From an uncultured Alphaproteobacteria bacterium (GTDB lineage Bacteria; Pseudomonadota; Alphaproteobacteria; CAWBKL01): 64,000 nt of DNA. The stretch is taken from contig CAWBKL010000005.1 of NCBI GenBank assembly GCA_963789405.1, positions 455,976 through 519,975 of the forward strand. The letters run 5' to 3'. This document shows positions 4,130-41,672 of the stretch, one piece after another (positions within the stretch are counted from its first letter, which is position 1; every line of letters begins with the position of its first letter). The notes under the pieces were generated by a model. The model saw only the letters and a list, made by a program, of their open reading frames with translations, searched no databases and was not told where the DNA came from. A program made the position numbers and the translations under genes.

Positions 4130-4144
4130 TTTTGCGAATTTGTC

Positions 4145-4167
4145 ATGCTCGGACTTGTTCCGAGCAT
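4145..4167 (+). terminator. stem-loop downstream of rpsD (atgctcgga-cttgt-tccgagcat)
   Basis: Perfect 9-bp inverted repeat 15 bp after the rpsD stop. No clear T-tract, which is common in high-GC genomes. Confidence 0.45.
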
Positions 4168-4239
4168 CCAGGATAGGTCTCCTAAGTGACTGAATCTTCG
4201 GGACAGGCTCGAGGATGACGGGCAGGAGGTCCTCTGCAG

Positions 4240-4866: not shown

Positions 4867-4869
4867 GTC

Positions 4870-5376: not shown

Positions 5377-5379
5377 CGG

Positions 5380-5706: not shown

Positions 5707-5800
5707 TTCCGGCTCTCCTTGGCGGCGAGAGAACGGCCGCCCACCCAGCGAAAATGGGAGAGTGGCCCTTCAAGGTCAATGCCTGGCGGGGTGATGGCGG

Positions 5801-6862: not shown

Positions 6863-6892
6863 GGTCGCTCTCCCTCTGTTGGAGCGCGGGAT

Positions 6893-7819: not shown

Positions 7820-9045
7820 TGTGTTGGCTCCAATTTCGTGCCGTCTTGGCCTGTAGCGGCGTAAGGATTGAATGACGGGTCGTCCGTCAAGACGTAGCTG
7901 CCATCATTGAGGCGGTAGGCATCGTTATATTGGTTCGAAAGCTCGACCGTGCCTGTCGTGCTCTGGGGATCGTTGTAGGTCTCGACGCCGCGGATCGCTT
8001 CGCTCGTCTCGCGTTGCATGTGATCCTGGATGGCATTTCTCTCTTCCCAGCCCTTCATCTGCATATCGCTGATCTCATTGCCGGTCTGAGCGATGATCTG
8101 CGAGCGCTTTCTCGATTCGCGCAACGCAGTGGCGTTCATTTGCGCCTGCGATTTGTTGATGCGCGCCTGCCATTGCGGGTCCAGCTTGAACGAGGAGCGG
8201 ATCAGCTCCGCGAGCTTGAAGTTGAGCTGGCCATTCGGGGCATGAAACGCATAGGCCGGCAGCGCTTGCGCCGATAGGGAATTCATTGTGCCGCCAGCCG
8301 GGTTCTGCATGTTGCTCGACGAGAAGACGACGACTGCGGCGATCGATTCGCGCTCGTCCGCGCCGTTATTGTTGTAGGCAATGAGCACTTCGCCGGCATC
8401 GACCCAGGTGCGCATGGAGCCCATCGCAGTCGGTGTGTTCTGCTCGAGCTGTTTGAGGCTTTTCAGAAGATCCGGGCGCGGACGAAAATCAAGGATGCGT
8501 GCGCCGGGCCGCTGCGTTTGCACGAGCCAGCCAAGATAATCATGCGCATTGTCCGCTCGGATCGGCGGGCAGCCGGGCGGGGTCGGCGCGCCGAAATTGT
8601 TCATCGACCAAGCGACGCCAGGAATAATTTGTGCGCCGGTCGCGCCATCGGGTGCTGTTGCGTTCCACTGAAACTGATAGCCCGAGCCGCATTGCGCCTG
8701 CACATTCCACACAACCCCGCCCTGCGCCTTCCAGCCGGCCGGAACGAGAATGGTCGCGGCCGTCATGGGCCGTTCGAAGCCGGAAGGGTCGACGATCTGC
8801 GCTGGGCGCAGCCTAATCGCGTCTTTTGGCAGGGCTTTGGCGCCGCCCTGCGGCGGCATCTGGCCCGGCGGCGCGCCGTTTGTGGCGTCCATCTGGGGCT
8901 CGCCATATTGCGCCCCGCCGTCGTCGGCGTCGTCCGCGTTCGATGAACTCTGGTTGCCGCATGCGGCAAGCAACAGTGCTGCCGCCGCCACAAGAAACTG
9001 TGCTCTCACGATAGCTCCCCCTTTCATTCGTGCCGCGCTTAGCAA
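7816..9045 (-). CDS. hypothetical lipoprotein (LAACG lipobox), 409 aa; first gene of a two-gene operon with the Q-rich rhodanese-like protein
   Basis: Signal peptide plus lipobox ([14 protein letters not shown]). Acidic, Gly-rich mature N-terminus. No recognisable domain. ATGA-type overlap with the downstream gene. Confidence 0.5.
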
Positions 9046-9089
9046 GCTTAGCCGATTGGCGCCCCCGCGAAAACAGCGGGAACGGGCGG

Positions 9090-9320
9090 CTAAGGCACGC
9101 TGGTCTGCAACGCCAGCGCGTGCAACTCGTTGCCCATACGCCCCTTGAGCGCGTCATAAACCATCTGATGCTGCTGAACCCGCGTCTTACCCTTGAACGC
9201 CGCCGAAACAACGACCGCGGCATAATGATCGCCGTCGCCCTGCAAATCCTCGATCGTCACCTGGGCATCCGGAATGCCTTCCTTGATGAGCTTTTCGATC
9301 TCGGCCGGGTTCATCGCCAT
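9090..9320 (-). CDS. BolA family protein
   Basis: 76 aa; ...VTIEDLQGDGDHYAAVVVSAAFKGKTRVQQHQMVYDAL... fits the BolA/YrbA fold. Confidence 0.8.
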   Translation of the reverse strand: MAMNPAEIEKLIKEGIPDAQVTIEDLQGDGDHYAAVVVSAAFKGKTRVQQHQMVYDALKGRMGNELHALALQTSVP

Positions 9321-9413
9321 TGGACACCCTCATATTGCGCCCGGCGGCCCGGGACCCTATGACCAACGCCTCAGATGATGGTGCGCGCACCGCGCTGCTG
9401 CAAGAGATGGCTC

Positions 9414-10007
9414 ATGCTCGATCAGTTGAAAGCCAACAACCGGGACTGGGCTTCGGGCAAGGTTTCGGCCGACCCGGATTTCTTCAAGCGGCTCGAGCGC
9501 CAGCAGGCGCCCGAATATCTCTGGATCGGCTGCGCCGATAGCCGCGTGCCGGCCAACGACATTGTCGGGCTCGACCCGGGCGAATTGTTCGTCCACCGCA
9601 ATGTCGCCAATCTCGCGCCGCCCCAGGATGCGAACTATCTTTCCGTGCTGCAATTCGCGGTCGATGTCTTGAAGGTCAAGCATGTCATCGTTGTCGGCCA
9701 TTATGGCTGCGGCGGCGTCGCTGCTGCCGTGGATGGGCAAAGGCGCGGCCTTGTCGATCACTGGCTGCATCCGATTCGCGAGATCTATCAGGACAATCGG
9801 GCGGCGCTCGAAGCAATCGCTGATCAGCACGCGCGGCTCAACCGGCTGTGCGAGCTTAATGTGATGCGGCAAGTGAGGAATGTCGCTTCAGACGTCTTCG
9901 TCCAGCAAGCGTGGGCGCGCGGTCAGCCGCTTTCGGTGCATGGCTGGGTTTATGCGCTCAAGGATGGCCTGGTGAACGATCTCGGCGTTACTGTCAGCGG
10001 ACCCTGA
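9414..10007 (+). CDS. beta-class carbonic anhydrase
   Basis: CADSRVPANDIVGLDPGELFVHRNVANL and HYGCGGV motifs. The ORF could start earlier at 9375. Confidence 0.85.
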   Translation: MLDQLKANNRDWASGKVSADPDFFKRLERQQAPEYLWIGCADSRVPANDIVGLDPGELFVHRNVANLAPPQDANYLSVLQFAVDVLKVKHVIVVGHYGCGGVAAAVDGQRRGLVDHWLHPIREIYQDNRAALEAIADQHARLNRLCELNVMRQVRNVASDVFVQQAWARGQPLSVHGWVYALKDGLVNDLGVTVSGP

Positions 10008-10305
10008 AGTTCATTGCCTTCATTCGTTTCGATGCTTCGTTGCCATTCGTTGTCATCCTCCACCAGATAGCGGTTAGATGGGATCGAGCGTCACGCTCTT
10101 CAAGATCTGATCGACAAATAACTCCGTAGGCTGAAGTTTTCCCCGGTCCACCCATGGCTCAGGGGCGACTTTGGGGTCCGTTTTCCCCGATGACTCCTCT
10201 ACAATACCGGACTGGTTCGGATGTCGAACGGATTCTAGAATATGTTCCCGTTCGAGTGGTCCGCGACCTAGAGTCGACCCTCTTGTGGAGTTGGAATGTC
10301 AATCG

Positions 10306-10702
10306 ATGGGCTTGCTTGATAGGCTGTTTATCTACTCTTACGCGCTCATGCTGAGATCGCCCGCCCGCAACCGTCCTCACGCTTCCGCGATCATAAACGT
10401 CGCCGTGTCCGTCGGGATAAACCTATGGTGCTTGCTATTGCTGATCGGCGTATTCAGCCATCACGACTACCTTAGGGAGCTTGGAAAGCTCAGGATCGTG
10501 GCTGCCGGAACGGTACTTTGATGTGGCGATTTGCTACTACTTCGTTCGGCATAACCACAGCATTCGGCTCGTTGAAAGCACGCCAGAAGTTTATTCGACA
10601 CATACGTTTCTAATTGGGTTGGCGTTGACGGTGTGGAGTTATAGCTCATCATTCTTGTGCATTGCGCTTATCGTCTCTTTGTCTGCTGTTCGCATGTTGT
10701 AG
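10306..10702 (+). pseudogene. possible small membrane protein gene in a lower-GC stretch, split over two frames (break ~10500)
   Basis: ORF 10171..10521 (MGLLDRLFIYSYALMLR...INLWCLLLLIGVF...) continues in ORF 10481..10702 (FLIGLALTVWSYSSSFLCIALIVSLSAV). Local GC is about 50%. Confidence 0.25.
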
Positions 10703-10729
10703 CAAGGGCTATCAGCGCGCGCTCTTGGT

Positions 10730-12925
10730 TTAGCCCATCAGCTTGGGCAGGAAGGCTTCATGCGCGGCGCGTAAATCGGCAAGCGAGACGCGGGCGCCGC
10801 CTTCAATGATGATATCGACGCCGCCGACAATGCCGATGCGCTCGGCGGGAACGCCAGCAGCTTCCGCCATCGCTCGAATGCGCGCAGTTGAATGCGGCGA
10901 GCAGGCGATGACATAGCGCCCTTGATCTTCGCCGAACCAATAGGAGGGCTCGGTGCCGGTGGTGATCTCGGTGTCGAGCAGGCATCCGATATTCGAGGCC
11001 AGCGCCATCTCGCCAATCGCAACCAGCAAGCCGCCATCGGAAACATCATGCGCGAAGGAGATCTCGCCTGAAGTGATCAGCTTGCGGACGAAATCGCCAT
11101 TGCGCTTTTCTTCGGCGAGATCGACCGGCGGCGGCGGGCCATGCTCGATGCCTTTGAAGTGACGCAGCAGCAAGGATTGTGCGAGATGGCCGCGCGTCTC
11201 GCCGATCACCACAATGTCGTTGCCGACCTGGCCGAAGCCGACGCGCGCGAAATGCGCAAGATCCTTGAGCAGGCCGACCGCGCCAATCGCCGGCGTCGGC
11301 AGGATCGCTCTGCCTTGCGTTTCGTTGTAGAGCGAGACATTGCCCGAGACGACGGGAAACCCAAGCGCGCGGCAAGCTTCCGCCATGCCCTCGATCGCGG
11401 CGCCGAACTGACCCATGATCTCGGGCCGTTCGGGGTTGCCGAAATTCATGCAGTCGGTCACGGCCAGCGGCGTTGCGCCGACCGCGGTGATATTGCGCCA
11501 CGCTTCGGCAATCGCCTGCTTGCCGCCTTCGAAGGCGTCGGCTTGGACATAGCGCGGCGTGCAATCGGTGGTGATGGCGAGCGCCTTGTTGGTGCCATGC
11601 ACGCGCACAAGCGCGGCGTCCGCGCCGGGCGAGCTCACCGTATCGCCCATGACGGTTGCGTCATATTGATCGGTGATCCAGCGCTTGGAGCAGAGATCGG
11701 CGGTGCCCATGAGCGCGATCAACGCTTCGCCGACATCGCAGTGAATCCATTCCTCTTGCTTGGTCAGCGGCGCGGGCCGCGCGGGCCGCGCGAACGGCCG
11801 CTCATAAACCGGCGAATTGTCTGCAAGCGCAGGCAGGGGGATATCGGCGACCGTCTCGCCCTGATGCTTCAAGACGATATGATTGGTGTCTGTGATCTTG
11901 CCGATCACGGCGACATCCAGGCCCCACTTCTTGAAGATGCGCTCGGCGACATGCGTCTTCTCGGGCTTCAAGACCATGAGCATGCGCTCTTGGCTTTCCG
12001 AGAGCATCATCTCATAGGCGGTCATGTGCGTTTCGCGCTGCGGCACGTGATCGAGATCAAGTTCGATGCCGACGCCGCCTTTGGCCGCCATCTCGACCGA
12101 AGAAGATGTGAGGCCCGCCGCGCCCATGTCTTGAATTGCGATAATCGCATCCTCGGCCATTAGCTCAAGGCACGCCTCGATGAGCAATTTCTCCGTAAAC
12201 GGATCACCCACTTGGACCGTCGGGCGCTTCTCCTCAGAGTTTTCGTCAAACTCGGCGGAAGCCATGGTCGCGCCATGGATGCCGTCGCGCCCGGTCTTGG
12301 AGCCGACATAGACGACCGGATTGCCGACACCTGCTGCGGCCGAATAGAAAATCTTGTCCTTGTCGATGAGGCCGACCGTCATCGCATTGACGAGAATATT
12401 GCCGTTATAGCTTGGATGAAAATTGACTTCGCCGCCGACAGTCGGCACGCCGACGCAATTGCCATAGCCGCCAATGCCGGCAACGACACCCGCCACGAGG
12501 TGGCGCGTCTTCTCATGATCGGGCGCGCCGAATCTGAGCGCATTCATATTGGCGATCGGCCGCGCGCCCATGGTGAAGACATCGCGCAAAATGCCGCCAA
12601 CGCCGGTGGCCGCACCTTGATAGGGCTCGATGAAGCTCGGGTGGTTGTGGCTTTCCATCTTGAAGACGGCAGCCTGGCCATCGCCGATATCGACAATGCC
12701 TGCATTCTCACCCGGACCCTGGATGACTTGCGGGCCCGTCGTCGGCAATTTCTTGAGCCACACTTTGGAAGATTTGTAGGAGCAGTGCTCGCTCCACATC
12801 ACCGAGAAAATGCCAAGCTCGGTCAGATTCGGCGCTCTATTCAGTGCACGGACGATGATCTGATATTCATCTTGGCTGAGACCATGATCTTTGATCAGCT
12901 CCAGCGTTATCTGAGTCATAACCAT
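10730..12925 (-). CDS. purL: phosphoribosylformylglycinamidine synthase subunit PurL
   Basis: 731 aa; [52 protein letters not shown]... Confidence 0.95.
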
Positions 12926-23452: not shown

Positions 23453-26400
23453 ATGAATCGCTGGCTGCCGGCTGCCTTTCTTGCGGCACTATTGGTCATT
23501 GGCGGCATCGCCTATCTCGTGGTCGCAAAGCCGCATTTCGGCGGCACCAAGCCAACCAGTCAGACCACGGAGCAAACCGCATCGGGCAGACCCGCCGGTG
23601 CGGCCGGATCACAGCCGGCGGCGGTCAGCGCCTCGATGACATTCCAGCGATTGAATGTCGACACGTCTGGCGATCGCCCCGAAGCGTGCCTCGTCTTCTC
23701 GCAAAACCTCGATGCTTCCGGCAACACGAGCTATTCCGATTACGTCAAGCTCGATCCCGAGGTGCAGCATTCGGTGCGGGTGAACGGTAACGCGCTGTGC
23801 ATTGGCGGGCTTGAATACGCAAAAGATTACAGCGCCAAGATTCTCACCGGGCTGCCTTCAGTGACTGGGCAGAAGACGACCTACGAAGAGACGGTGCCGA
23901 TCTCGCTTTCGGACCGGCCGGCGGCGATCGCATTTTCCGGCGGAATCATTTTGCCGCGCGAGAGCGAAGGGAAGATCCCCGTCACATCAGTCAATGTCGC
24001 TTCGATGAAGATCAAAGTTCTGCGCGTGGGCGACCGCTTGCTTGCACGGCTCAGCGAAGGCTTGGTCGATTCAAGCGAGCTCTACGATTACGACGCCAGC
24101 CAGATCGAAGACGAAATGGGTTCGCTCGTTTGGCAAGGCACGATGGCGATCGAGGGCAAGAAGAACCAGACAGTCACGACGCTCATTCCGCTGCATGACG
24201 CGATCAAGAGCGAAAAGCCGGGCGTTTATCTCGTGCTCGCGAGCGATGCCAAAGAGAAGAACAAGATCGGCTACGACGAGAACGGCACAGCCGCACAGTG
24301 GGTCATCGACACCGATATCGGCCTCACAAGCTTCCAAGGCGCTGATGGGCTTCACATCTTTGCACGCAGCCTTTCGACGGCAAAGCCGATGTCAGGCGTC
24401 GAAATCGCGCTGGTTGCGCGCAACAATGAGGAGCTTGGGCGCGTCAAAACCGACGGCGACGGCGAAGCGAGCTTCAACGCGGATCTCCTCAAAGGCGCGG
24501 GCGGCGATACACCTGTCGTTGTGATGGCCTATGGCGGGCAGGATTTTGCCTATCTCGATTTGCGCCGGCCAGCTTTCGACTTGAGCGACCGCGGCGTTTC
24601 CGGCCGCGAGCAGCCGGGCCCGGTCGACGCTTATCTCTATCTCGATCGCGGCATCTACCGGCCCGGCGAGTCTGTCTATGTGACGACGCTCTTGCGCGAC
24701 GCATTCGTCAATTCGGTCACCGATTCACCTTTGACGCTGATCGCCAAGCGCCCGGACGGCGTCGAATATCGCCGCATCCAGCTCAATGGCGATCAAGCCA
24801 AAGCCGGCGCATATGCCGCATCGTTTCCGCTCAGCGTGACGGCGCCGCGCGGCCGCTGGCAGATCGCCGCCTATGTCGATCCAACCAGCGCTCCGATCGG
24901 CCGCGTCACGTTCGATGTGCAGGATTTCGTGCCTGAGCGCTTGAAGGTGACGCTGACGCCGAAAGCCGCATTCTACAAGCCGGGCGACATGGTTGAAGTC
25001 GGTGTTGAGGGCCGCTTTCTTTACGGCGCGCCGGCATCGAACCTGACCGGCGAGGGCGAGATGCGCGTCTCGGTCGATCCCAATCCTTTTCCGGACTTGA
25101 AAGGCTATCACTTCGGCCGCGAGGAGGAGCGCTTCCAGGATCAGGTCATCTCGTTGAAGATTGATCCGACCGATTCGAGCGGCCAGACGACAGCAACCGG
25201 CACGCTCGATCTGCCCAATGCAACAACACATCCGCTCCTTGCCATCATCAATGTCGGCTTGACCGAGCCGGGCGGGCGCCTGACGCGCCAAGAGACCAAA
25301 GTGCCGATCCGTACCGGTAATGTGATGGTCGGTATCCATCCCGATTTCAACGATGATTGGGTGCGCGAGAACACACCTGCCAATTTCGAAGTGCTCGCGG
25401 TCGATGCGAATGGCAAACAGCTCGACAAGACGAACATGAGCTATCGCATCGTGCGCGAGGTCGTGCACTATCAATGGTATCAAACGAACGGCAAATGGCA
25501 GTGGGAGCGCCAGACCCGCGATCTGCCTGTCTCCGATGGCAAGCTTGCAGTTGCACCGAACGCGCCCGGCAAGATCTCGGCGACGGAAGAGTGGGGTAGC
25601 TACCGCGTCATCGTTGCCGACAATGAAACAGGTGCCAGCTCATCCTACGAGTTCTTTGTTGGTTGGGGCGGCTCGGCGGCAAATGACCGGCCGGACCGCG
25701 TGGCCGTTTCGCTGGACAAGCAGACCTATAAGCCGGGTGAGAAGGCGACGCTCACCATTCATCCGCCGACGGACGGCAAGGCGCTGATCCTGATCGCTTC
25801 CGACCGCGTCTATCAGAAAGTGCTGATGGACGTGCCGGCATCGGGCGGAACTTATTCCTTCACCGTCGATAAGAAGTGGGGCACTGGCGTTTATGCGCTG
25901 GTCGAGCACTATCGCGGCACGGGTGAAGGCAATTCGCGCGCGCCTGTGCGCTCGATCGGGCTGGCCTGGCTGGGGGTCGATCAAAGCGATCGCAAGATCC
26001 GCGTCACGATCAAGGCACCCGACAAGGTGAAGCCGCAGACCACCGTCGACATTCCCGTGCAAGTCGATGGCGCGCACGGCAAGACCTACATAACGCTCGC
26101 CGCAGTCGATGAAGGCATCTTGCAACTCACTGATTTCGTCTCGCCGTCGCCGAGCGACTATTATTTTGGCAAGCGCAGGCTGGGCGTTGAGATCAGAGAT
26201 GCTTACGGCCGGCTAATTCAGGCGCAGGAAGGCGCGCTCGGCGCGTTGCGCTCAGGCGGCGATAATTTCGGCGGCGGCGAAGGCTTGACCGTCGTGCCGA
26301 CGCGCACGGTCGCGCTTTATTCCGGCCTCGTTGCGGTCAACGGGCAGGGCATTGCGCATGTCAAGCTCGACATCCCTGATTATGTCGGCTCACTCAGGTT

Positions 26401-28321
26401 GATGGCAGTCGCCTTCAACGACAGCCAAGTCGGCGAAGCGAACACGGATCTCATTGTACGCGATTCTGTGGTTGCCGATCTTACATTGCCGCGCTTTCTG
26501 GCGCCGAAAGACAAAGCGAGCGCGACCTTGCTCGTCGACAATGTCGAGGGACCCGCCGGCAATTACCATGTCGATGTCACGACGAGTGGCGCAGTGGTCA
26601 CGAACAAGACCAGCTTCTCGCTCAACCTTGCCGCCAAGGCGCGCCAGATCGTCAGCGTGCCGATCACCGGCGGCGAGCCCGGCATCGGGACCGTGACGCT
26701 CGACTTCCGGGGGCCGGGCAATATCCGCTTCACGCGGGCTTGGCCGATCGAAATCAGGCCCGGCCAGCGTCCGGCAACGACCGAGCAAGTGGCCGAGCTT
26801 GCGCCCGGCGCCACGCTCACGCTCGCGCGCTCCTTGTTCCAGGGCTACTACCCGGGCACGGCGAAGATGTCGGTCTCGCTGGCGTCGAACCGTGCTTATG
26901 ACGTGCCTGCGCTGCTCCGTTGGCTTGATCGCTATCCTTATGGCTGCATCGAGCAGACGACGAGCAGAGCCTATCCCTTGCTTGTCTATAACGATCTCGC
27001 GGCGCAAGCGGGCATTGCGCAGGATGTCGGCGTCAAAGTGCGCGAGCAGAACGCGATCGACAGCGTGCTCGACATGCAAAACGGCTACGGCAATTTCTCG
27101 ATGTGGGGCTGGGGCGGCAGCTCGGCCTATGACTGGCTCTCGGTCTATGCGCTCGACTTCCTGATGAACGCCAAGCAGGCGGGCTATGTCGTGCCGCAGG
27201 ATGCGTTGAACCGCGGCGACAGCTGGCTGCACGGAACGGCGGTGCAGAGCTGGGAGCCGCACGAGGTCCGCTCTTACGCAATGTATGTGCTGGCCAAGCA
27301 GGGCGCGATCAATCTCTCCGACTTGCGCTACTATCACGATACGCAGCTGGGCAAGATGGTCACGCCGATGGCGGCGGCGCATCTGGGTGCAGCGCTCGCG
27401 CAAATGGGCGATAGAAGCCGCGCGCATTCGGCCTTTCTCAAAGCCGTCGATCTTGCAAGCACGCCGATCACCGAAAAGAACATGCCGCCTTACGGCTCGG
27501 ATCTGCGTGAGGTCGCCGGCACAACCGCGCTTGTTGCGCAATCGGGCGAGACGGATTTGTTGCCGAAGCTGTTCGCCCGCACCCAGGAGCTGACGACGAA
27601 CATCGAGGACACATCGACGCAAGAAAAAGCGTGGATGTTGCTCGCAGCCTCGGCTTTGTCGAAGGCGCAAGGGCCTCTATCCGTTGCAGTCAAAGGCGTC
27701 GCCTCACTCGGCAAGGGTCCTATCTATCTCGCCGCGCTCACGCCGGATTCGGTAAATAACGTCGAGGTGAAGAACACCGGTAATGCCAAGGTCTGGTACA
27801 CGGTCGCGATCGATGGGACGCAGATCAACCCGCTGCCGGCGATGTCGCAAGGCGTCTCCATCACCAAGAGCTATTACACGATGGACGGCCAGCCGGTTTC
27901 GCTGTCGAGCCTCAAGCAAAGCCAGCGCGTGATCGTGGTGATCAGCGGGCACATGCCGGACGTAAAGCAGCGCACAATGGGCGTGATCGATCTGTTGCCT
28001 GCAGGGCTCGAGGTCGATGCGCCGCTCGGGCCGGGCGCCGAGGACACTTACAAGTTCTTGCCCGCGCTTACGCCGACCAGTATTGCGCAAAAGCGTGATG
28101 ACCGCTTCGTCGCCGCCTTCGACATTCGCGGCATGCGCCGTCTGACACCGGAGAAGAGGTGGGTCGAGATCATTCCCGACTATGCGGTGGCGTATATCGC
28201 GCGCGCCGTAACGCCGGGCTCATTCGTTCTGCCGGCGGCGACGATCGAGGACATGTACGCCCCGGGCGTGAAAGCACGCACCGACATCGGATCGATCACC
28301 GTCACCGGCCCGAATGGTTGA
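23453..28321 (+). CDS. bacterial alpha-2-macroglobulin family protein (YfhM-like), membrane-anchored, intact thioester motif
   Basis: 1622 aa. N-terminal TM anchor. Thioester site ...DRYPYGCIEQTTSRAYPLL (CxEQ). Followed directly by pbpC, as in the known yfhM-pbpC pairing. Confidence 0.9.
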   Translation: MNRWLPAAFLAALLVIGGIAYLVVAKPHFGGTKPTSQTTEQTASGRPAGAAGSQPAAVSASMTFQRLNVDTSGDRPEACLVFSQNLDASGNTSYSDYVKLDPEVQHSVRVNGNALCIGGLEYAKDYSAKILTGLPSVTGQKTTYEETVPISLSDRPAAIAFSGGIILPRESEGKIPVTSVNVASMKIKVLRVGDRLLARLSEGLVDSSELYDYDASQIEDEMGSLVWQGTMAIEGKKNQTVTTLIPLHDAIKSEKPGVYLVLASDAKEKNKIGYDENGTAAQWVIDTDIGLTSFQGADGLHIFARSLSTAKPMSGVEIALVARNNEELGRVKTDGDGEASFNADLLKGAGGDTPVVVMAYGGQDFAYLDLRRPAFDLSDRGVSGREQPGPVDAYLYLDRGIYRPGESVYVTTLLRDAFVNSVTDSPLTLIAKRPDGVEYRRIQLNGDQAKAGAYAASFPLSVTAPRGRWQIAAYVDPTSAPIGRVTFDVQDFVPERLKVTLTPKAAFYKPGDMVEVGVEGRFLYGAPASNLTGEGEMRVSVDPNPFPDLKGYHFGREEERFQDQVISLKIDPTDSSGQTTATGTLDLPNATTHPLLAIINVGLTEPGGRLTRQETKVPIRTGNVMVGIHPDFNDDWVRENTPANFEVLAVDANGKQLDKTNMSYRIVREVVHYQWYQTNGKWQWERQTRDLPVSDGKLAVAPNAPGKISATEEWGSYRVIVADNETGASSSYEFFVGWGGSAANDRPDRVAVSLDKQTYKPGEKATLTIHPPTDGKALILIASDRVYQKVLMDVPASGGTYSFTVDKKWGTGVYALVEHYRGTGEGNSRAPVRSIGLAWLGVDQSDRKIRVTIKAPDKVKPQTTVDIPVQVDGAHGKTYITLAAVDEGILQLTDFVSPSPSDYYFGKRRLGVEIRDAYGRLIQAQEGALGALRSGGDNFGGGEGLTVVPTRTVALYSGLVAVNGQGIAHVKLDIPDYVGSLRLMAVAFNDSQVGEANTDLIVRDSVVADLTLPRFLAPKDKASATLLVDNVEGPAGNYHVDVTTSGAVVTNKTSFSLNLAAKARQIVSVPITGGEPGIGTVTLDFRGPGNIRFTRAWPIEIRPGQRPATTEQVAELAPGATLTLARSLFQGYYPGTAKMSVSLASNRAYDVPALLRWLDRYPYGCIEQTTSRAYPLLVYNDLAAQAGIAQDVGVKVREQNAIDSVLDMQNGYGNFSMWGWGGSSAYDWLSVYALDFLMNAKQAGYVVPQDALNRGDSWLHGTAVQSWEPHEVRSYAMYVLAKQGAINLSDLRYYHDTQLGKMVTPMAAAHLGAALAQMGDRSRAHSAFLKAVDLASTPITEKNMPPYGSDLREVAGTTALVAQSGETDLLPKLFARTQELTTNIEDTSTQEKAWMLLAASALSKAQGPLSVAVKGVASLGKGPIYLAALTPDSVNNVEVKNTGNAKVWYTVAIDGTQINPLPAMSQGVSITKSYYTMDGQPVSLSSLKQSQRVIVVISGHMPDVKQRTMGVIDLLPAGLEVDAPLGPGAEDTYKFLPALTPTSIAQKRDDRFVAAFDIRGMRRLTPEKRWVEIIPDYAVAYIARAVTPGSFVLPAATIEDMYAPGVKARTDIGSITVTGPNG

Positions 28322-28335
28322 GCTGGCGTTGAACC

Positions 28336-30646
28336 ATGAGCGGCGAAACGCCCAAAGCTGGTTCAGCCAAAACTTCCGTCCCTGTGGGAGGGGAGAAAGG
28401 GCATGAGACTTCTAATTCACCGCCGCCTGAACTCTCTTCGTCACCCGGAGGCTCGGAGGGCCGCGGCGATCCAGTCTTCCTTTCTGGATTGCTTCCCCCG
28501 GCTCAGGACCGGGGTCGCAATGACGTCGCCAATTTGATCAAACGCTTGTTCACCAAGCCGCCGAAGAGGCGCTGGATCGAGATCGCGGCGGCCGTGTTCG
28601 CTGCGCTCACGCTGATCGTCACGCTTGATCTCGTCTTTCCGCCTGATCTCGGCCGCTACAAGGACCGCTCGGTTGAAGTGCGCGCCCAAGATGGTCATTT
28701 GATGCGTGCTTATCTTTCAAATGATGATCAATGGCGCCTGGTCACGCACCCGCAGGATGTCGATCCGCGCTATCTCGCATTTCTCAAAGCGATCGAAGAC
28801 AAGCGCTTCGATTCGCATTGGGGCGTCGATCCGCTCGCCGTGTTGCGCGCCGCCGGCCAATGGATCACTGCGGGTCACATCGTGTCGGGGGCATCGACGC
28901 TCACCATGCAGGCCGAGCGCTTGCTCGAGCCGCGCCCACGCGGGCTCGGTACCAAAGCGCTGCAGGCTTTGCGCGCGCTTCAGCTCGAGCGGCGCTATTC
29001 GAAGAGCAAGATCCTTTCGGTCTATCTCACGCTCGCGCCATTTGGCGGCAATCTCGAAGGCGTGCGCGCTGCGTCGCTTGCCTATTTCGGCAAGGGGCCG
29101 GCGCATCTGACGACGGCGCAAGCGGCGCTTCTTGTCGCTTTGCCGCAATCGCCCGAGCGCATGCGCCCCGATCGGCATCCGGCCAATGCGCGCCAAGGCC
29201 GCGACAAGGTGCTTCACCGCTTGGCCGATGATGGTGTCATCGATCAAGCAACGCTGAATGAAGCGCTGGCCGCGCCAATTCCTGATGCGCGCCGCCCCAT
29301 GCCGTTGATTGCGCCGCGTTTTGCCGATGATCTTTTTGCGACGGCCAAGCCCGGCGAGATCATCCGTACACCAATCGATTTCGAGCGCGAGAAGCAGATC
29401 GAGCGAATGGGCGCCGATGAGCAAAGATGGTTTCCCGATGGCGCCTCGATGGCAGCGATCGTGATTGAGAATCGAAACCGCGAGGTGCGCGCCTATATGG
29501 GCGGGCTCGATTATTGGGGCCGGGCGGGCCAGATCGATCTGGCGCGTGCGGTGCGCTCGCCTGGCTCGGCGCTCAAGCCGTTCATCTATGGCCTCGCTTT
29601 CGATGAGCTGCCGCTTCATCCCGAGACGATCATGCTCGATGAGCCGCTGGTGTTCGGCGATTACGCCCCGCAGAATTTCGATCACGGTTTTCAGGGTATG
29701 GTGAGCGTGCGCCAGGCGCTGCAGATGTCGCTGAACATTCCGGCCGTCGCCGTGCTCGATAAGCTTGGGCCGGTGCGCGTCGCCGAGCTCTTGAAGAGCG
29801 GCGGCGCCAAGCTGTCTTTCCCCTACACGCATGAGCTGCCTGGCCTGCCGATGGCGCTCGGCGGCGTTGGCATCAGCCTGCATCGATCTTGCACAGCTCT
29901 ACGTCGCGCTGGCTGACGAGGGCGTCTATCGCCCGCTGGTGATGAAGCTTGGGGAAAAGCAGCCTTTCGAGCAGCGGCTGATCTCGCGCCGCGCCGCGTG
30001 GTATCTCAAAGACATCCTACGCGGCTCACCGATGCCGGATGGCTGGGGGCGCGGCAGCCAAGTTCACCGGCCGCGTAAGATCGCCTTCAAGACCGGCACC
30101 TCCTACGGCTACCGCGACCAGTGGGCCGTCGGCTATTCGGACCGTTACACGGTGGCGGTTTGGGTTGGGCGCGCTGACGGCTCGGCGCGCCAGCAAGAGG
30201 TCGGACGTAACACCGCCGCGCCGATCGTCTTTAAGATTTTCGATCTCTTGCCGGCTGAGGAGAACACGCGGGACATTCCACCACCTGAGGCTGTTCTGGT
30301 TTCCGACAACACGCTGCTTCCCGAGGCAATGCAGAGGTTTTATGCGGGGCCGCAAAAGCCAGCTGGAAATGTCAGCATGCGGACAAGCGCGCCGCAAATC
30401 GCGTATCCGCCGAACGGCGCAACCTTGCAACTCGGCAACAAGCCTGCCGGCCGGCTGATTGAGCTCAAAGCGACAGGCGGCCAAGGGCCGTTGCGCTGGA
30501 TCGTTAACGGGGAGCTTTTGCCGTCCACGGACTTTCTGTCTCAGACTTTCTGGAAGGCGAAAGGTCCGGGCTTTGTGAAGTTCGTCGTCATCGATTCGGC
30601 CGGCCGTGCGGCGGCTGCGCGCGTGCGCATAAAATTCGACGGCTGA
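28336..30646 (+). CDS. pbpC: penicillin-binding protein 1C (transglycosylase/transpeptidase); frameshift ~29870
   Basis: GT51 transglycosylase motifs (EDKRFDSHWGVD, SGASTLTMQ). The transpeptidase portion continues in ORF 29831..30646 (KTGTSYGYRD). Confidence 0.85.
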
Positions 30647-37419: not shown

Positions 37420-38130
37420 ATGGCAGAGCAAAAGACGGCGGGCGCGATCATCATCGGCGATGAGATCCTCTCCGGCCGAACGAAAGACACCAACCTCAAC
37501 ACGATTGCGCTCTACTGCGAGGACTGCGGCGTCGCGCTGAAAGAGGCGCGCACCGTGGGCGACACCGAGGCCGCAATCATCGAAGCGGTGAATGCGCTGC
37601 GCGCGCGCTATGACTATGTCTTCACCACCGGCGGCATCGGCCCCACGCATGATGACATCACGGCGGAATGCATCGCCAAGGCGTTCGGCGTTCCGCTGAT
37701 CCATCATCCCGATGCGATGGCGCAGCTCAAGGCGCAATTGGGCGCCAATTTCAACGAAGCCCGCGCGCGCATGGCGCGTGCACCGCAAGGCGCGGTGCTG
37801 ATCGACAATCCGGTCTCGGTCGGCCCCGGCTTCATGACCGGGAATGTCATCACCATGGCGGGCATTCCGCGCGTGATGACGGCGATGCTGGAGAGCGCGC
37901 GCCCGTTTATCGTCGGCGGGCCGAAAGTGTTGAGCGAAGTGATTTTCACCAGCGTGCCGGAAGGCGATTTGGCCGAGCCGCTGGGCGCAATTCAAAAGCG
38001 ATTTCCTGAGGTGTCGATCGGCTCTTATCCCGGCTACCGCGATGGGCGCATCACCAACCGCCTCGTCTTGCGCTCAACCGATGCTGCCTTGCTCGCCGAA
38101 GCCAAAGCCGCCGTTGAAGCAATTGTGTGA
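37420..38130 (+). CDS. CinA N-terminal-domain / MoCF-biosynthesis-domain (molybdopterin-binding fold) protein
   Basis: GAIIIGDEILSGRTKDTNLNTIALYCEDCGVAL...YDYVFTTGGIGPTHDDIT matches the CinA-N/MoaB-MogA fold. The ORF may start at 37387. Confidence 0.7.
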   Translation: MAEQKTAGAIIIGDEILSGRTKDTNLNTIALYCEDCGVALKEARTVGDTEAAIIEAVNALRARYDYVFTTGGIGPTHDDITAECIAKAFGVPLIHHPDAMAQLKAQLGANFNEARARMARAPQGAVLIDNPVSVGPGFMTGNVITMAGIPRVMTAMLESARPFIVGGPKVLSEVIFTSVPEGDLAEPLGAIQKRFPEVSIGSYPGYRDGRITNRLVLRSTDAALLAEAKAAVEAIV

Positions 38131-39973
38131 GCTTTCTCTGGGGCGACGTCGTTGGTGAATTACATCGCGCTCTTCTTGTTCATCGCCGCGCGAATTAGCT
38201 TGTTTAGGTCTGAGTGTCCTCCCCATACAGAGACGTTCTTGCGTTCGACGGGCGGAAAATAGCGAGAGGAAAAATAGACTGCTGCTTGAACATACGAAGA
38301 GCCGATGTTTGGATATGCCGAGACAAGAGACATTCTCCGTGGATGAGTTCCGAATTTCGCCACAAGAATCGCAGCAACGGCGCGAAGTGCGTCGTGTCGC
38401 CCAGCATCTCTAAGTATGTCCAGGCACAGCTTAACTAGCGAATCATCGGATTCAGGCATGCGCATCAGAGCTGCTAACACCCACATCCTCTGCCAATCAG
38501 CCATCGATGGGCTTGCCGCGAGTTCTATCAGGGTTTCAAGCACGTTCTTATGGTCTAAGAAGTTTGTGAGGTAAGAGCAATATATCTGCGTCATGGCAGG
38601 CTTGATCTTGAAGTTTTGAATCACGTAGTCGATCGCGTGATCGGAACCCGCCTTCATAAACAGCGGAAGACAAAAACGTTCAATGCTCTCGCTGTAGATG
38701 GGAAATTCGGAAATAGACGCGAAGAGCATCTTTGTCGCGGCCAATTCGATACTCTCGTCGTGGTCCTCATCGAAGTCGTCGTCGTTTTCCCAGTCAATTT
38801 GGAATCCGTAGTCTCCATCGGCGTAGGTTTCGTCAAGCGTGGCAGTGACTTCCTCAACGGCGTCCTGGAATAGCTCATCTAGATCGGGCTCATCTGCCAT
38901 AAGCGATATGCAGGTCGTAAGCGAAGACTTTGTTTCATTGAGCGACAAGTCGTACGTCCGCAAGAACGGGATCAGGTCGAGAAGAAGGTCATCTGCTTTA
39001 TCTGCCGTCGAGAGAAAGACGTAAATGTCGTCTACATACCGCGCAGAACTAAGGTTATTGTCCGACAGATATAGGTCGATCGGGGAGAGATAGAAGTTGC
39101 CGAACAGGTCAGACGGATACATCCCCTGCAAAATTCCGCGCGAGCTTCGTCCTCCGGCGTATACGAGAAGCAAAGCTTCAAGGACATTGAGAAAGCCCTT
39201 AGCATACCCCGCATCGGACAGCGTGTTTATCAAGGTATGCTGATTTATCGAGCCAAAACAATTCGCTATGTCGAGCTTCAAAATGTACTTATTGGCACTC
39301 GACAATGCATGCTTCTTTAGAGCGGTTTGAAGTTCACTCCAACAGAGCCTCGTTGGCTTGAACATAGCCGGGCTGTCAGGCGCCTCGAACTGATGACTGA
39401 ACGATCGTGTGTGATCGGTCTTCTTTTCAATGATGAATGCGGCGGAGTCTGCGAGAGCTTGATATAACAATCTGTCAGCCGGCATCAGTATGCTTCCCGG
39501 TCGCGAGTAGACCGGCCCTAGCCGTTTGGGTGTTGTTCGAACCCGATTGGATTTGGGAACTTCAATTGTTAGGGGTGTCCCTGGGTTGAAGATACCTGAC
39601 TTCAAGTCGCCAACTACGGAGGCGACCAGTTCGTCGTGCGCTTTATCGTAAATGAATCGGAGATGTGGGGCGAAGATAAAGTCAGAACGCGTATTGTAAG
39701 TAATCCTCGCAATTGCAAGGTTCCAGTCGATTTGCTTGAGCAGCGTACCATCCAGTCCAAATGACGGTTTGACCTCGGCAGAAGGCGGCATCTCAAAAAC
39801 TCTCAATCAAGCGAGCACAACGCTATCAGTATTCGCTTAGAACTCAAACTTGTTCTGCGCTCACAACTTGATGCACTCTAAGAGTGCTCCAGGGCTCAAA
39901 TGTCGGCGCAAAAATAAACTCTGGAGTTAAGGCGCGAAACGCTCTCCGGCATATCGAAGCAGGTTGGTGCGGC
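38131..39973. other. low-GC islet (about 48-50% GC versus about 65% in the flanks) carrying a single reverse-transcriptase gene, wedged between the 3' ends of two native genes
   Basis: Composition shifts exactly at the stop codons of the CinA-like gene (38130) and the GFA gene (39974). Confidence 0.7.
38160..39791 (-). CDS. standalone reverse transcriptase (RT domain plus about 250-aa C-terminal alpha-helical domain). Candidate Abi/UG-class defence RT.
   Basis: RT motifs in order: 1 LTIEVPKSNR, 2 SRPGSIL, A ILKLDIANCFGSI, B RGILQGMYPSDLFGNFYLSPID, C YVDDIYVF, D LIPFLRTYDLSLNETKS. No maturase/X or endonuclease domain. Acidic stretch DWENDDDFDEDHDE. ATG at 39791; the ORF track extends it to a TTG at 39806. 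Confidence 0.8.
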   Translation of the reverse strand: MPPSAEVKPSFGLDGTLLKQIDWNLAIARITYNTRSDFIFAPHLRFIYDKAHDELVASVVGDLKSGIFNPGTPLTIEVPKSNRVRTTPKRLGPVYSRPGSILMPADRLLYQALADSAAFIIEKKTDHTRSFSHQFEAPDSPAMFKPTRLCWSELQTALKKHALSSANKYILKLDIANCFGSINQHTLINTLSDAGYAKGFLNVLEALLLVYAGGRSSRGILQGMYPSDLFGNFYLSPIDLYLSDNNLSSARYVDDIYVFLSTADKADDLLLDLIPFLRTYDLSLNETKSSLTTCISLMADEPDLDELFQDAVEEVTATLDETYADGDYGFQIDWENDDDFDEDHDESIELAATKMLFASISEFPIYSESIERFCLPLFMKAGSDHAIDYVIQNFKIKPAMTQIYCSYLTNFLDHKNVLETLIELAASPSMADWQRMWVLAALMRMPESDDSLVKLCLDILRDAGRHDALRAVAAILVAKFGTHPRRMSLVSAYPNIGSSYVQAAVYFSSRYFPPVERKNVSVWGGHSDLNKLIRAAMNKKSAM

Positions 39974-40360
39974 TTACTCAAAGCGGCTGGTGGCGTCGCG
40001 ATCGCGCTCATAGTGTCTGAGCAGAAATGGCGGCAACCAGGATTCGCGGCGGATGGTCCAGAGTTCGTAAGTCGGCATCAGTTGATCGGGCGCATCGAGT
40101 GATCCCAGATTCACTTCGATCTCGTCTTCGCTGCGTGAGAAAACCGGCGAGCCGCAGCGCGGGCAGAAGAAGCGCCCAGCATAATCGCGCATTTCGCCGG
40201 TGATCGTCACCGCATCCTGAGGGAAGACCGCGGATGCGTGAAACAGCGCGCCATGATGTTTGCGGCAATCGAGGCAATGACAAAGGCCGACCCGATATGG
40301 CCGCCCCGACGCTACAATTCGCACGCTGCCGCACAAGCAACCGCCGGTGAAACGCTCCAT
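39974..40360 (-). CDS. GFA-family (CENP-V-like) zinc-binding protein
   Basis: MERFTGGCLCGSVRIVASG...GLCHCLDCRKHHGA...FFCPRCGSPVF cysteine pattern. Confidence 0.7.
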   Translation of the reverse strand: MERFTGGCLCGSVRIVASGRPYRVGLCHCLDCRKHHGALFHASAVFPQDAVTITGEMRDYAGRFFCPRCGSPVFSRSEDEIEVNLGSLDAPDQLMPTYELWTIRRESWLPPFLLRHYERDRDATSRFE

Positions 40361-40406
40361 GCCCGCGTCTCCTCCAAAATCAGGCGGCCGGAGCAGCTAA
40401 ACGAGA

Positions 40407-41390
40407 TCAGCCGCCGCGCAGCTCGATCTCGATGTGGCCGGGCGCGGGCACATCGCTGCCGTCCGTCCCGTCGATCACCTCATAGCCGCGATGACGCCCA
40501 TGTGAATCTTTCACATCGCTCGCCAGCGCATCCAGCTTGTCGGCCACCGCCTTGTCGCCCGCATGGAAGAACTTCACTTGGTTGTGCTCCAAGCGACCCT
40601 TGACCGGATTTTTCTCGATATTGGTGATGCCGTGCTTGTTCAAAGCCTCGATCAGCTCTTGCGCGCTTGCCGCGGCATTGGGTGAGCCTTTGGCATAGGT
40701 GATCTTGATCATCGCCGCTGCCATGCCGGTCGATGCGGTTACGCCTTCGCCTGGCTTTGATTTCGCGGGCGTTGATGCCGCGCCTGCATGCGCATCGCTT
40801 GCCTGCGCTTTTGACGGCTTGGTCGCGCCGGTGAGCCCCGCCGGCGCCGGCTTTGTTGATGGCCCTGCCAGCGCCGCAGCAATTTCGGCTTTTGCGTTCG
40901 ATTGTGGCGTAAGCGGGTTCTTCGCCGTCGCAGATGCCGGTGTGACCTGCTCTGCGAGCTTTGCATTGGGCTTGGCTGAAGGCGCCGCGATCACCGGCCG
41001 CTGATGCGGCACAGGCGGCCCGCCCGCTGTCGTGGATGCGGGCCCGGCCGGCGGCGTTACGGGCGCGGCCGATGCCACGACATCATGCGTTCCGGTTGGC
41101 GCAGGCGCTGTTGCGGCGCTCGGCGAAGCCGGCAGCTGCACATTCGGCATGGCCTTGGGGCGGGGCGGTGAGCTGATCGCGCCGGGCTTTTTGGCCGGCT
41201 GCGCCTGAGGCGGCATTTCGAGCAGCCCGCTCCGGCCCGAAGTTTTCTCAGGCGAATCGAGCACGAAAGGCGGCGTTGTCAGGGCGGGCAGAACATTGAG
41301 CATCATCAGCGCGCCCGTCAGCAGCACCGCGGCGACGGTGCCGCAGATAATGCCGATCATCTCCTTCTGCGAAACTTTAAGCGCGTTCAT
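40407..41390 (-). CDS. membrane-anchored protein: long Pro/Ala-rich linker and small C-terminal globular domain (LytR_C-like?)
   Basis: MNALKVSQKEMIGIICGTVAAVLLTGALMMLNV TM anchor. About 200 aa of P/A/T/S-rich sequence. C-terminal ...MIKITYAKGSPNAAASAQELIEALNKHGITNIEKNPVKGRLEHNQVKFF... Confidence 0.45.
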   Translation of the reverse strand: MNALKVSQKEMIGIICGTVAAVLLTGALMMLNVLPALTTPPFVLDSPEKTSGRSGLLEMPPQAQPAKKPGAISSPPRPKAMPNVQLPASPSAATAPAPTGTHDVVASAAPVTPPAGPASTTAGGPPVPHQRPVIAAPSAKPNAKLAEQVTPASATAKNPLTPQSNAKAEIAAALAGPSTKPAPAGLTGATKPSKAQASDAHAGAASTPAKSKPGEGVTASTGMAAAMIKITYAKGSPNAAASAQELIEALNKHGITNIEKNPVKGRLEHNQVKFFHAGDKAVADKLDALASDVKDSHGRHRGYEVIDGTDGSDVPAPGHIEIELRGG

Positions 41391-41514
41391 CTTCAAATCT
41401 CGTGGGCTGCCGTCGGGCCGCCAGGTCTGGGACGGGTGCCGGGCGCCCAGTTTTGCGATTTGCAGGGGCCGGTGACAAGCGCGCCGCGAGCGTGCAATAG
41501 AGCAACTCCCCCCA

Positions 41515-41599
41515 GCGGACGTGGTGGAACCGGTAGACACATGGGACTTAAAATCCCAAGCCGCAAGGCGTGAGGGTTCGAGTCCCTCCGTCCGCACCA
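41515..41599 (+). tRNA. tRNA-Leu (anticodon TAA), class II with long variable arm
   Basis: GCGGACG acceptor stem pairing with CGTCCGC-ACCA. Anticodon loop CTTAAAA (TAA at 34-36). Long variable arm. T-arm GGTTCGAGTCC. Confidence 0.85.
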
Positions 41600-41672
41600 A
41601 TCGCCGCCTCCAGGTTCCTCGAACCCTCACGCTTCATGTGATCAGGAGCGAGCAAGCGCCCGCTCCCTCTGC

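Follow-up and report, generated by a model that had tools for sequence, protein, structure and literature searches.

Within the window, by which we mean the whole 64,000-nt stretch of DNA analysed, from a host in a poorly sampled alphaproteobacterial lineage, one low-GC islet holds a single gene, for a reverse transcriptase (RT). To which kind of RT does it belong, how did it arrive, and what does it do? Our main reading, which as a whole we put at a probability of roughly 0.6, is that the gene encodes a member of group UG20 and that its product would act by a single-gene abortive-infection mechanism; the mechanism is inferred from the solved or assayed Class 1 relatives AbiK, Abi-P2, AbiA, DRT4, DRT6 and DRT3b. 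The gene and its spacers lie as follows:

38160..39791, minus strand: intact RT gene, encoding a 543-aa Class 1 UG/Abi RT assigned to group UG20 (ORF, PADLOC RT_UG20 and Pfam RVT_1)
39792..39973, minus strand: low-GC upstream spacer of 182 nt, part of the putatively acquired block and presumably holding the promoter and 5' UTR
38131..38159, no strand: 29-nt spacer between the convergent stops of the RT and CinA-like genes, left edge of the block (from coordinates and the end of homology in relatives)

The ORF has an ATG start and covers 1632 nt, i.e. 543 aa and a stop. The first-pass annotation had its coordinates, minus strand and intactness right, and gave 544 aa for this length. The ATG-form protein lines up with residue 1 of its homologues, and an identical 543-aa protein is recorded in NCBI/ENA (on a 710-kb contig). 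A TTG at 39806 is a mechanical alternative start that would yield 548 aa. Pfam detects RVT_1 alone in the protein (residues 143-293, E 4e-14), in agreement with the earlier statement that maturase/X, endonuclease and integrase domains are absent, and the RT motifs quoted at that stage all occur in the translation, within family-invariant blocks. The PADLOC model for UG20 (PDLC03758 RT_UG20) aligns protein residues 11-537 with profile positions 2-511 of 511 (E 2e-208, 691.6 bits); the runner-up models are UG21 (185.5 bits) and UG22 (158 bits), and Drt4 reaches 65 bits vs 692 for UG20. Named NCBIfam equivalogs all score below their cut-offs: Drt5 (79 bits vs 550), Drt4 (58 vs 450), Drt3a (51 vs 200), Drt3b (36 vs 350), AbiA (32 vs 250) and Drt2 (15 vs 390).

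UG20 is a Class 1 UG/Abi group defined by Mestre et al. 2022 (PMC9226505), where it stands among the Class 1 groups with HEAT-like C-termini. Judged from sequence, the RT protein is almost certainly a member. The likeness lies in the end-to-end profile match, the length, the combination of RT and HEAT-like alphaRep domains and the stand-alone gene, and we see no defining difference; the window copy diverges from the rest, with no more than 60% identity to any other and 56% on average. The suggestion that the RT might be unclassified falls away, since the group was already defined and its PADLOC model matches at full length, while the broader call (an RT of UG/Abi type, standing alone, its C-terminal domain helical) is borne out by that match and by the whole-length superposition of the model described below. 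The gene is an ordinary member of a catalogued group, and annotation should label it a UG20 (Class 1 UG/Abi, 'DRT class I') RT, not a generic RT.

That the RT belongs to a group II intron, a retron or a DGR has a negligible probability. For the intron, group_II_RT_mat (TIGR04416) scores 62 bits vs a cut-off of 300, the X/endonuclease domain is absent, and only 29 nt lie downstream of the gene. This gap, put at 30 bp in the first-pass annotation, is indeed very short, and the exclusion of an intron that was built on it holds. An Rfam scan of 36-42 kb at E up to 1 returned zero matches, whether to an intron RNA, msr/msd or any other RNA family. As to retrons, the St85 RT model gives 32 bits vs a cut-off of 235, the fold of the upstream spacer does not exceed shuffles, and inverted repeats are limited to a single 15-nt pair at 87%, 1.6 kb apart; as an insertion scar this pair was likewise rejected, being at chance level. 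A DGR would need features that are missing from 37600-40500, where there is no direct repeat >16 nt and no template/variable pair; the Avd domain is absent, and the neighbours are the CinA-like and GFA genes. The profile comparison that had been proposed against RTs of these three kinds thus returns UG20 as best match, with cognate RNA elements and accessory genes absent. In structure comparison, RTs of group II introns, retrons or DGRs match only as far as the palm; with Class 1 RTs the match covers the full length.

The AF2 model behind these comparisons is confident (pLDDT 86) and shows RT fingers and palm joined to a HEAT-like alphaRep domain by an acidic, disordered linker:

38844..39791, minus strand: RT-like fingers and palm, residues 1-316
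39027..39038, minus strand: catalytic motif YVDD, Y252-D255, from sequence; D174 is the third catalytic aspartate
38766..38843, minus strand: acidic linker, disordered, residues 317-342, joining the RT and alphaRep domains and carrying DYGFQxxW (pLDDT and family alignment)
38808..38810, minus strand: codon TAC of Tyr328, predicted priming residue, read at 38810-38808
38178..38765, minus strand: HEAT-like alphaRep C-terminal domain, residues 343-538, 12 helices (model)

By analogy with solved Class 1 RTs, the RT domain appears to lack a canonical thumb. Linker residues 318-333 and 335-341 have pLDDT <50 in the model, and across the family the linker is 23-41 residues long and about 50% Asp/Glu. 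The 12 helices of residues 343-538 are modelled at pLDDT 90-98; taken alone, the domain matches HEAT and alphaRep proteins, and its fusion to the RT in the model is what UG20 membership calls for. The structure prediction that had been proposed to tell alphaRep/HEAT from HEPN comes out for a HEAT-like alphaRep, with no match to a HEPN fold such as that of the HEPN-containing RTs (AbiA-large, UG22-associated). An acidic block and the stretch RDAGRH had been singled out in this region; both are present, but R-x4-H is not a conserved motif, because its first position varies among the 121 family members (K in 78, R in 21, Q in 18). A HEPN reading of RDAGRH was rejected on this variability and on the HEAT-like fold. 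Along its entire length the model can be superposed on DRT6, DRT4, AbiA, AbiK and Abi-P2.

UG20 homologues number at least 775, all of about 537-545 aa, the best being 59-60% identical to the window protein. Conservation was counted in 121 homologues and, separately, in 54 representatives (window included) reaching down to 21% identity. (A supposed representative of the RT's 90% cluster, P0392, 49 aa, proved to be a clustering artefact: an unrelated DUF3388 fragment whose assembly is riddled with frameshifts.) In the 121 sequences D174 and D254 never vary and Y252, V253 and D255 are conserved at ≥90%; D174, D254 and D255 remain conserved at ≥90% in the 54 representatives. The window protein thus has both the motif A Asp (D174) and the YxDD of motif C (Y252, V253, D254, D255). 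Mean pairwise identity in the family is 68% over several phyla, which is high for a defence gene.

Could the window gene be a UG20 relic, in decay or with its function impaired? Its protein is an outlier, with a mean of 56% identity to the others vs the 68% family mean, and departs at 30 positions that are ≥90% conserved elsewhere, including Y40F, G52H, R203V, R271L and W512F. Disrupted copies are moreover common at other UG20 loci (L011, L033, L038, L041, L042). Against this, the ORF is full-length, all 92 of 92 family-invariant residues are kept, the catalytic triad and Tyr328 among them, the AF2 model is confident, and other intact members too can have F, W, L or I at position 40. A relic is therefore very improbable, whereas reduced or altered activity of this copy is possible, given the low mean identity and the 30 changed positions.

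How would such an enzyme start synthesis? The Class 1 systems studied make DNA without a template, several of them protein-primed (PMC13174585), and template-independent, protein-primed synthesis with a covalently bound product has been described for AbiK, Abi-P2, AbiA, DRT4, DRT6 and DRT3b (PMC13174585, PMC12783706, PMC11077055). By analogy, untemplated, protein-primed DNA synthesis is probable for the window RT. The position of the priming tyrosine differs between families, that of AbiA being in the linker between RT and helical domains (PMC12783706, PMC11077055). Tyr328, in the motif DYGFQxxW, is our candidate, with about an even chance of being the priming residue. It is invariant in 121/121 homologues, its column is Tyr in 52 of the 54 representatives, and that column is among only 28 positions conserved at ≥90% in this deep set. 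A Tyr somewhere in the linker occurs in 53/54 representatives vs about 64% expected from composition, and of the deeply conserved tyrosines Tyr328 alone lies in a disordered loop. Two other positions were rejected: an AbiK-like N-terminal priming Tyr (Y40, 'SDFIYAPH') is Phe in the window protein and F, W, L, I, H, A, P or V in others, and a DRT3b-like C-terminal one finds no conserved Tyr in the C-terminal tail.

The RT might otherwise copy an RNA template, as do Class 2 DRTs, retrons and DRT9, from an ncRNA in the 182-nt spacer or elsewhere. DRT2, DRT3a, DRT9 and DRT10 depend on a cis-encoded ncRNA, the spacer offers room for one, and in our comparison of the window with 37 fetched UG20 loci (38 in all) members of one subclade (L006, L008, L010, L032) are about 80% identical over some 120 upstream nt. 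That conservation is no more than such closely related genes would be expected to show. The window spacer folds no better than shuffles (z = -0.04), matches no Rfam family and resembles none of the flanks of the 37 other loci; no non-coding sequence, upstream or downstream, is common to window and loci, and spacing to the upstream gene ranges from <20 to >300 nt. On these grounds an upstream ncRNA was dropped as a candidate. Neither a terminator-like site in 38131-38159 nor a sigma-70-like site in the upstream spacer was found, the latter by a weakly informative scan. The protein also falls in Class 1, whose studied members are template-independent, and its alphaRep architecture is closer to the untemplated enzymes (TM 0.50-0.60) than to DRT9 or DRT2 (0.32-0.37). 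An RNA template is thus improbable, and we keep to untemplated, protein-primed synthesis.

The composition of the locus speaks to its origin. The islet 38131-39973 has 50.1% GC, with flanks at 60.4% and 61.0% and the 64-kb window at 60.3%; it is the lowest-GC 1.8-kb stretch of the 64 kb, 4.8 SD under the mean. In a greedy ORF set of 68, the RT gene has the lowest GC (0.50), with a GC3 of 0.57 against a typical value of about 0.72. The drop described in the first-pass annotation is thus real, and the windowed GC and ORF composition computed here confirm it, although its flanks of 65% were overstated (60-62%). When two change points are fitted by likelihood, the low-GC block comes out at 38121-39930 (0.496 inside vs 0.619 outside). 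The stop codons of the neighbouring genes, given earlier as the edges, are compatible with this fit, but 'exactly' is finer than the resolution, because the 2-lnL intervals span 38066-38256 and 39915-40030.

Relatives tell a similar story on the left side. In the closest (L073 and L074, 1-kb contigs whose CinA gene is 82-84% identical in DNA), the alignment breaks off 5-15 nt short of the CinA stop. Among four relatives, what follows CinA (a sequence or a gene) is different in each; relatives further off (60-63% CinA identity) carry other genes at this point and lack GFA there. UG20 genes have a GC under their host's in nearly all of the 37 loci. Composition together with the loss of homology at the CinA stop upholds the horizontal acquisition proposed at first, and from sequence comparison the islet was very probably acquired as one gene with short flanks. 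No vehicle is apparent: UG20 homologues were found in 0 of 50,697 phage records and in only 3 of 72,556 plasmids, and no recombinase was found at the RT locus. As insertion scar we also discarded a 16-nt, 81% direct repeat at 38164 and 40001 (9 exact bases, ATCGCGCTC), which is at chance level, and as integration site a tRNA-Leu gene (41515-41599), which lies 1.5 kb off with native-GC genes between and without an integrase. The locus illustrates cleanly how a single gene can be acquired at a variable site on the downstream side of a CinA-like gene.

The neighbours named earlier, a CinA-like MoCF_biosynth/FLAD1_M protein and a GFA protein, are as reported. The window copy stands by itself within a core region whose genes include those for purine synthesis, map, and those for alpha-2-macroglobulin and PBP1C, and PADLOC gave no other match among the 35 larger ORFs scanned over 10.7-55.4 kb. 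UG20 behaves as a stand-alone gene elsewhere too: no cluster of neighbours is common to more than 6 of the 38 loci, none holds a fixed position, and the neighbours are heterogeneous. In 30 loci most are housekeeping genes, e.g. ThiC, SHMT, GatB and ribonucleotide reductase. Defence neighbours occur at a minority of UG20 loci and not in the window: Lamassu LmuA/LmuB adjoin the RT at one locus (L015), pAgo and Gabija/PARIS-like ATPases are found among the neighbours, one homologue sits within a plasmid toxin-antitoxin island, and a 36%-identical relative adjoins DarT/macro-domain and SIR2 genes.

These surroundings bear on whether a UG20 RT, enzymatically as described here, serves immunity at all, or has another cellular role (DNA damage or stress) or is a selfish, often-transferred gene. 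The housekeeping neighbourhoods, the solitary window copy and the high family identity fit a role outside immunity; Mestre et al. 2022 left the defence prediction for UG20, one of 16 such UG groups, inconclusive (PMC9226505); and a PrimPol-RT defence protein has been reported to contribute to an oxidative DNA damage response too (PMC12439943). We found no literature after Mestre et al. 2022 that names UG20. Yet every experimentally characterised UG/Abi RT in the literature searched acts in phage defence, some UG20 loci do lie beside Lamassu, pAgo, Gabija-like or toxin-antitoxin genes, and the patchy distribution, the low GC in almost all hosts and the many disrupted copies are what one typically sees in accessory conflict genes. 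We therefore regard a non-immune role as unlikely. Some Class 1 enzymes make defined, not random, products (poly-dCdA by DRT3b, poly-dT by DRT7). It is quite doubtful that UG20 is a distinct Class 1 functional type, a highly conserved and self-sufficient enzyme, primed from the linker Tyr, with a defined, protein-specified DNA product and a role outside defence-island immunity; the last element is suggested by the way it lies alone amid housekeeping genes in many hosts and has spread across phyla with no recombinase to be seen.

An anti-phage role for the window RT is the likelier reading by analogy, and the single-gene mechanism we favour would run as follows. The alphaRep domain would replace the thumb and mediate oligomerisation; the hydroxyl of Tyr328 would swing from the linker into the active site and take the first dNMP; and the protein-bound primer would then be extended without a nucleic-acid template. 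The resulting ssDNA may accumulate, or be unmasked, when a phage factor disturbs its turnover, leading to abortive infection. Neither a partner gene nor an ncRNA would be needed. The prediction of Tyr328, with no RNA or partner expected, offers a sharp and cheap test for the whole UG20 group, and DRT4 and DRT6, related single-gene enzymes of Class 1, proved to be immune proteins of an unusual, DNA-writing sort.

These two are among the nearest known systems. DRT6 (UG12, PDB 9wy8) and DRT4 (UG15, PDB 9vdo) are single-gene hexameric antiviral RTs that attach random ssDNA covalently and cause abortive infection (PMC12783706). The model superposes on both over the whole length, but they belong to different UG groups, with only 13-17% sequence identity to the window RT, and DRT4 primes from Tyr125 in the palm, whereas the UG20 candidate is in the linker. 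AbiK and Abi-P2 (PDB 7r06, 7r08), 12-14% identical, prime from Tyr44 and Tyr61 in a fingers loop, where the UG20 counterpart, Y40, is Phe here and variable in the family. DRT3b (UG8), the Class 1 partner in DRT3, likewise joins an RT-like domain to an alphaRep and is hexameric and protein-primed (PMC13174585); unlike UG20, which has no partner, it needs a second RT and an ncRNA, and it makes its protein-templated poly-dCdA from a penultimate C-terminal Tyr for which UG20 has no conserved equivalent. AbiA (Lactococcus, PDB 8oz7, PMC11077055) differs in that AbiA-large forms dimers with an extra C-terminal HEPN domain, which UG20 lacks, but its loop 290-310, which holds the AbiA priming tyrosines (PMC11077055), matches topologically the position of the UG20 linker.

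The open reading frame proposed in the first-pass annotation is real: it runs from ATG to TAA on the minus strand, encodes 543 aa, and starts where residue 1 aligns in all homologues; an identical protein is already recorded on a 710-kb NCBI/ENA contig. The reverse transcriptase (RT) motifs listed there were all found, and coincide with family-invariant blocks. The locus reads:

38160-39791, minus strand: RT gene
Neighbour of the RT gene: CinA-like MoCF_biosynth/FLAD1_M gene
Neighbour on the other side: GFA gene

The convergent stops of the RT and CinA-like genes are 29 nt apart. GC content of the islet (38131-39973) is 50.1%, the minimum among all 1.8-kb stretches of the window and 4.8 SD under the mean; the drop described earlier exists but is milder than claimed, the flanks standing at 60.4% and 61.0% (window 60.3%). 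Among the 68 ORFs in a greedy set for the window, none is lower in GC than the RT gene (0.50), whose GC3 is 0.57 versus a typical 0.72. A change-point fit placed the low-GC block at 38121-39930 (2-lnL intervals 38066-38256 and 39915-40030), compatible with edges at the neighbouring stop codons, while exactness to the codon is beyond the resolution of the fit.

RVT_1 is the sole Pfam domain of the protein. It aligns along its full length with the PADLOC profile RT_UG20 (positions 2-511 of 511; 691.6 bits, E 2e-208), and the sister models are much weaker (UG21 186 bits, UG22 158, Drt8 136, UG19 130). This full-length match bears out the earlier assignment to stand-alone UG/Abi RTs, but not the label 'possibly unclassified', since Mestre et al. 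had already defined UG20 in 2022 as a Class 1 UG/Abi group, with remote HEAT-repeat homology at the C-terminus (PMC9226505); no other paper was found that treats UG20 together with reverse transcriptase. That the enzyme is instead a group II intron, retron or DGR RT is refuted by the RVT_1-only architecture, an NCBIfam search in which no family reached cut-off (group II intron, retron, AbiA and Drt2-5 included), the lack of an Rfam match, and a repeat search at the islet that gave nothing pointing to retron, DGR or insertion scar. The only repeat flanking the insert is a direct one of 16 nt at 38164-38179 and 40001-40016, with 81% identity and 9 bases matching exactly (ATCGCGCTC); its copies lie in the final codons of the RT and GFA genes, and it is probably due to chance.

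At least 775 proteins are UG20 homologues at E < 1e-5, nearly all 537-545 aa long, and those at E < 1e-30 form 184 clusters at 50% identity. Members are mostly Alphaproteobacteria (Bradyrhizobium, Rhodopseudomonas, Mesorhizobium, Sphingomonas), with others in Nitrospirota, Binatia and Burkholderiales and distant ones in Bacteroidota and Dehalococcoidia. Judged by sequence, the window copy is divergent, with at most 60% and on average 56% identity to other members; the others average 68%. It adds a new and divergent member to a group that is known but uncharacterised. Divergence might be read as decay, a very unlikely reading of this uninterrupted frame. Five other loci (L011, L033, L038, L041, L042) have an RT frame split by frameshift or stop, and are pseudogenes or MAG assembly errors. 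The 90%-identity cluster holding the window RT (P0391, P0392) is listed under a 'representative' that is an unrelated DUF3388 fragment of 49 aa (L078:8001-8150), taken from a Firmicutes assembly full of frameshifts; this is a clustering artefact of the protein collection.

In nearly all of 37 loci the UG20 gene lies under host GC, which fits repeated horizontal transfer. The host lineage is poorly sampled: apart from a single 100% match, which is its own contig, the CinA-like protein is matched at 85-86% on 1-kb contigs and otherwise at no more than 71%. For the two closest relatives (L073, L074; 82-84% DNA identity), homology to the window stops 5-15 nt before the CinA stop, and the 125 nt next in L073 lack the RT 3' end; what follows in them (L073:976-1100, L074:898-934) is unrelated non-coding sequence. 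Two distant relatives carry at the same place a BrnT toxin and HTH antitoxin pair with a patatin-like gene (L071, Azospirillaceae, 6763-9029) and an unknown gene with a response regulator (L075, 1248-2337), and the sequence just downstream differs in every relative examined. Thus, on these short contigs, the site after the CinA-like gene is apparently variable, with the RT no conserved resident, and looks like a small variable hotspot. Together with islet composition, this upholds the horizontal acquisition suggested earlier. The comparative support covers the left (CinA) edge; the GFA-side edge is placed by composition. No recombinase or integrase is encoded near the islet. A tRNA-Leu(TAA) gene (41515-41599, plus strand) lies 1.5 kb off, with native-GC genes between; it is overlapped by a mechanically called, Pro/Ala-rich 407-aa ORF without Pfam match (40407-41630, minus strand), whose real start must therefore be further downstream.

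PADLOC matched none of the 35 larger ORFs scanned (window 10.7-55.4 kb), which are housekeeping genes for purine synthesis, methionine aminopeptidase, RadC, alpha-2-macroglobulin with PBP1C, and glycosyltransferases. At 23453-29916, a gene of the penicillin-binding protein 1C type (Transgly, BiPBP_C matches) comes after the gene for a bacterial alpha-2-macroglobulin of 1622 aa; this is the usual pair, with no relation to the RT. In the 30 UG20 loci that are intact, the nearest two genes to either side of the RT are likewise mostly housekeeping, with defence genes a minority, as a non-defence role would have it; we hold such a role unlikely. Among the defence neighbours, a complete Lamassu pair (LmuA E 4.5e-138, LmuB E 2.4e-171) lies directly downstream of the RT in Pseudaminobacter sp. 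(L015, 7775-11614), and elsewhere a pAgo, Gabija/PARIS/OLD-like ATPases and 'mad' genes occur. Homologues are present in 3 of 72,556 plasmids and in none of 50,697 phage records. Plasmid-borne relatives are placed in conflict islands: a 53%-identical RT amid VapC, MazE/PIN, RES/DUF2384 and Uma2 genes (L076, Ca. Manganitrophus, 5642-12621), and a 36%-identical, apparently truncated one beside DarT, macro-domain, SIR2 and ATPase genes (L077, Rhizobium acidisoli pRapFH23c, 2113-9546). This gene context is suggestive of defence, not decisive, in agreement with the 'inconclusive' rating by Mestre et al. (PMC9226505).

No conserved neighbour emerged when all ORFs lying up to 4 kb from the RT were clustered over 37 loci and the window. 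Upstream of the RT is a spacer of 182 nt whose folding does not exceed that of shuffled sequence (z = -0.04); no Rfam family matches it at E up to 1, and it is unlike the flanks of every other UG20 locus compared. A Bradyrhizobium/Rhodopseudomonas subclade (L006, L008, L010, L032) has ~80% identical non-coding flanks in common, of about 120 nt on the upstream side of the RT gene and 50-150 nt on the downstream side; they contain '...CGCCAACTAGGGGTTGAA...GCCGCATC...GATACGGAGCGGTCAGC ATG' and are not shared with the window. Such conservation is about as expected among close relatives, and may mark a transferred unit, or a promoter and 5' UTR. An RNA-templated mode for the UG20 RT is distinctly unlikely; Class 1 enzymes studied make DNA without a nucleic-acid template, several from a protein primer (PMC13174585).

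The AlphaFold2 model, for which 121 sequences were aligned, has high confidence (pLDDT 86.4, pTM 0.88) and three parts:

Residues about 1-316: RT-like core
Residues 318-341: acidic disordered linker, pLDDT < 50
Residues 343-538: twelve helices

Structure comparison of the model (entry, system, two comparison values)
9wy8, DRT6, 20.3, 431
9vdo, DRT4, 18.7, 427
8oz7, AbiA, 17.1, 376
7r06, AbiK, 15.8, 434
7r08, Abi-P2, 15.2, 371

The R-x4-H spacing taken as a HEPN hint was mistaken: the first Arg of RDAGRH is not conserved (Lys in 78, Arg in 21 and Gln in 18 of the 121).

DRT4 and DRT6 are single-gene hexamers that constitutively produce random ssDNA covalently attached to protein, and kill the infected cell once a phage DNA-binding protein protects that ssDNA from host exonucleases (PMC12783706). 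The UG20 enzyme would be an oligomeric, constitutively active, protein-primed and untemplated polymerase, whose DNA product, either random or defined, would itself be the effector. The priming residue is family-specific among Class 1 RTs (PMC13174585, PMC12783706, PMC11077055): Tyr44 in AbiK and Tyr61 in Abi-P2, both in the fingers (same sources), Tyr125 of the DRT4 palm (PMC12783706), and a C-terminal Tyr in DRT3b (PMC13174585). AbiK-like priming at position 40 was rejected (Phe in the window RT, variable in other UG20 members), as was DRT3b-like priming (no conserved Tyr in the UG20 C-terminal tail).

Tyr328 sits mid-linker in the motif DYGFQxxW, the rest of the linker being variable, 50% acidic and disordered. 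It is invariant in 121/121 homologues; the aligned column is Tyr in 52 of 54 representatives (window included), down to 21% identity, and is among only 28 positions conserved at ≥90%, along with the catalytic D174, D254 and D255. A linker Tyr occurs in 53/54 representatives, versus about 64% expected from composition. By analogy with AbiA, we propose Tyr328 as the predicted priming residue of UG20, and this precise, testable prediction is the chief value of the analysis: AbiA primes from Tyr298/Tyr303 in the flexible RT-helical loop (PMC11077055), the same arrangement as Tyr328 in the UG20 linker.
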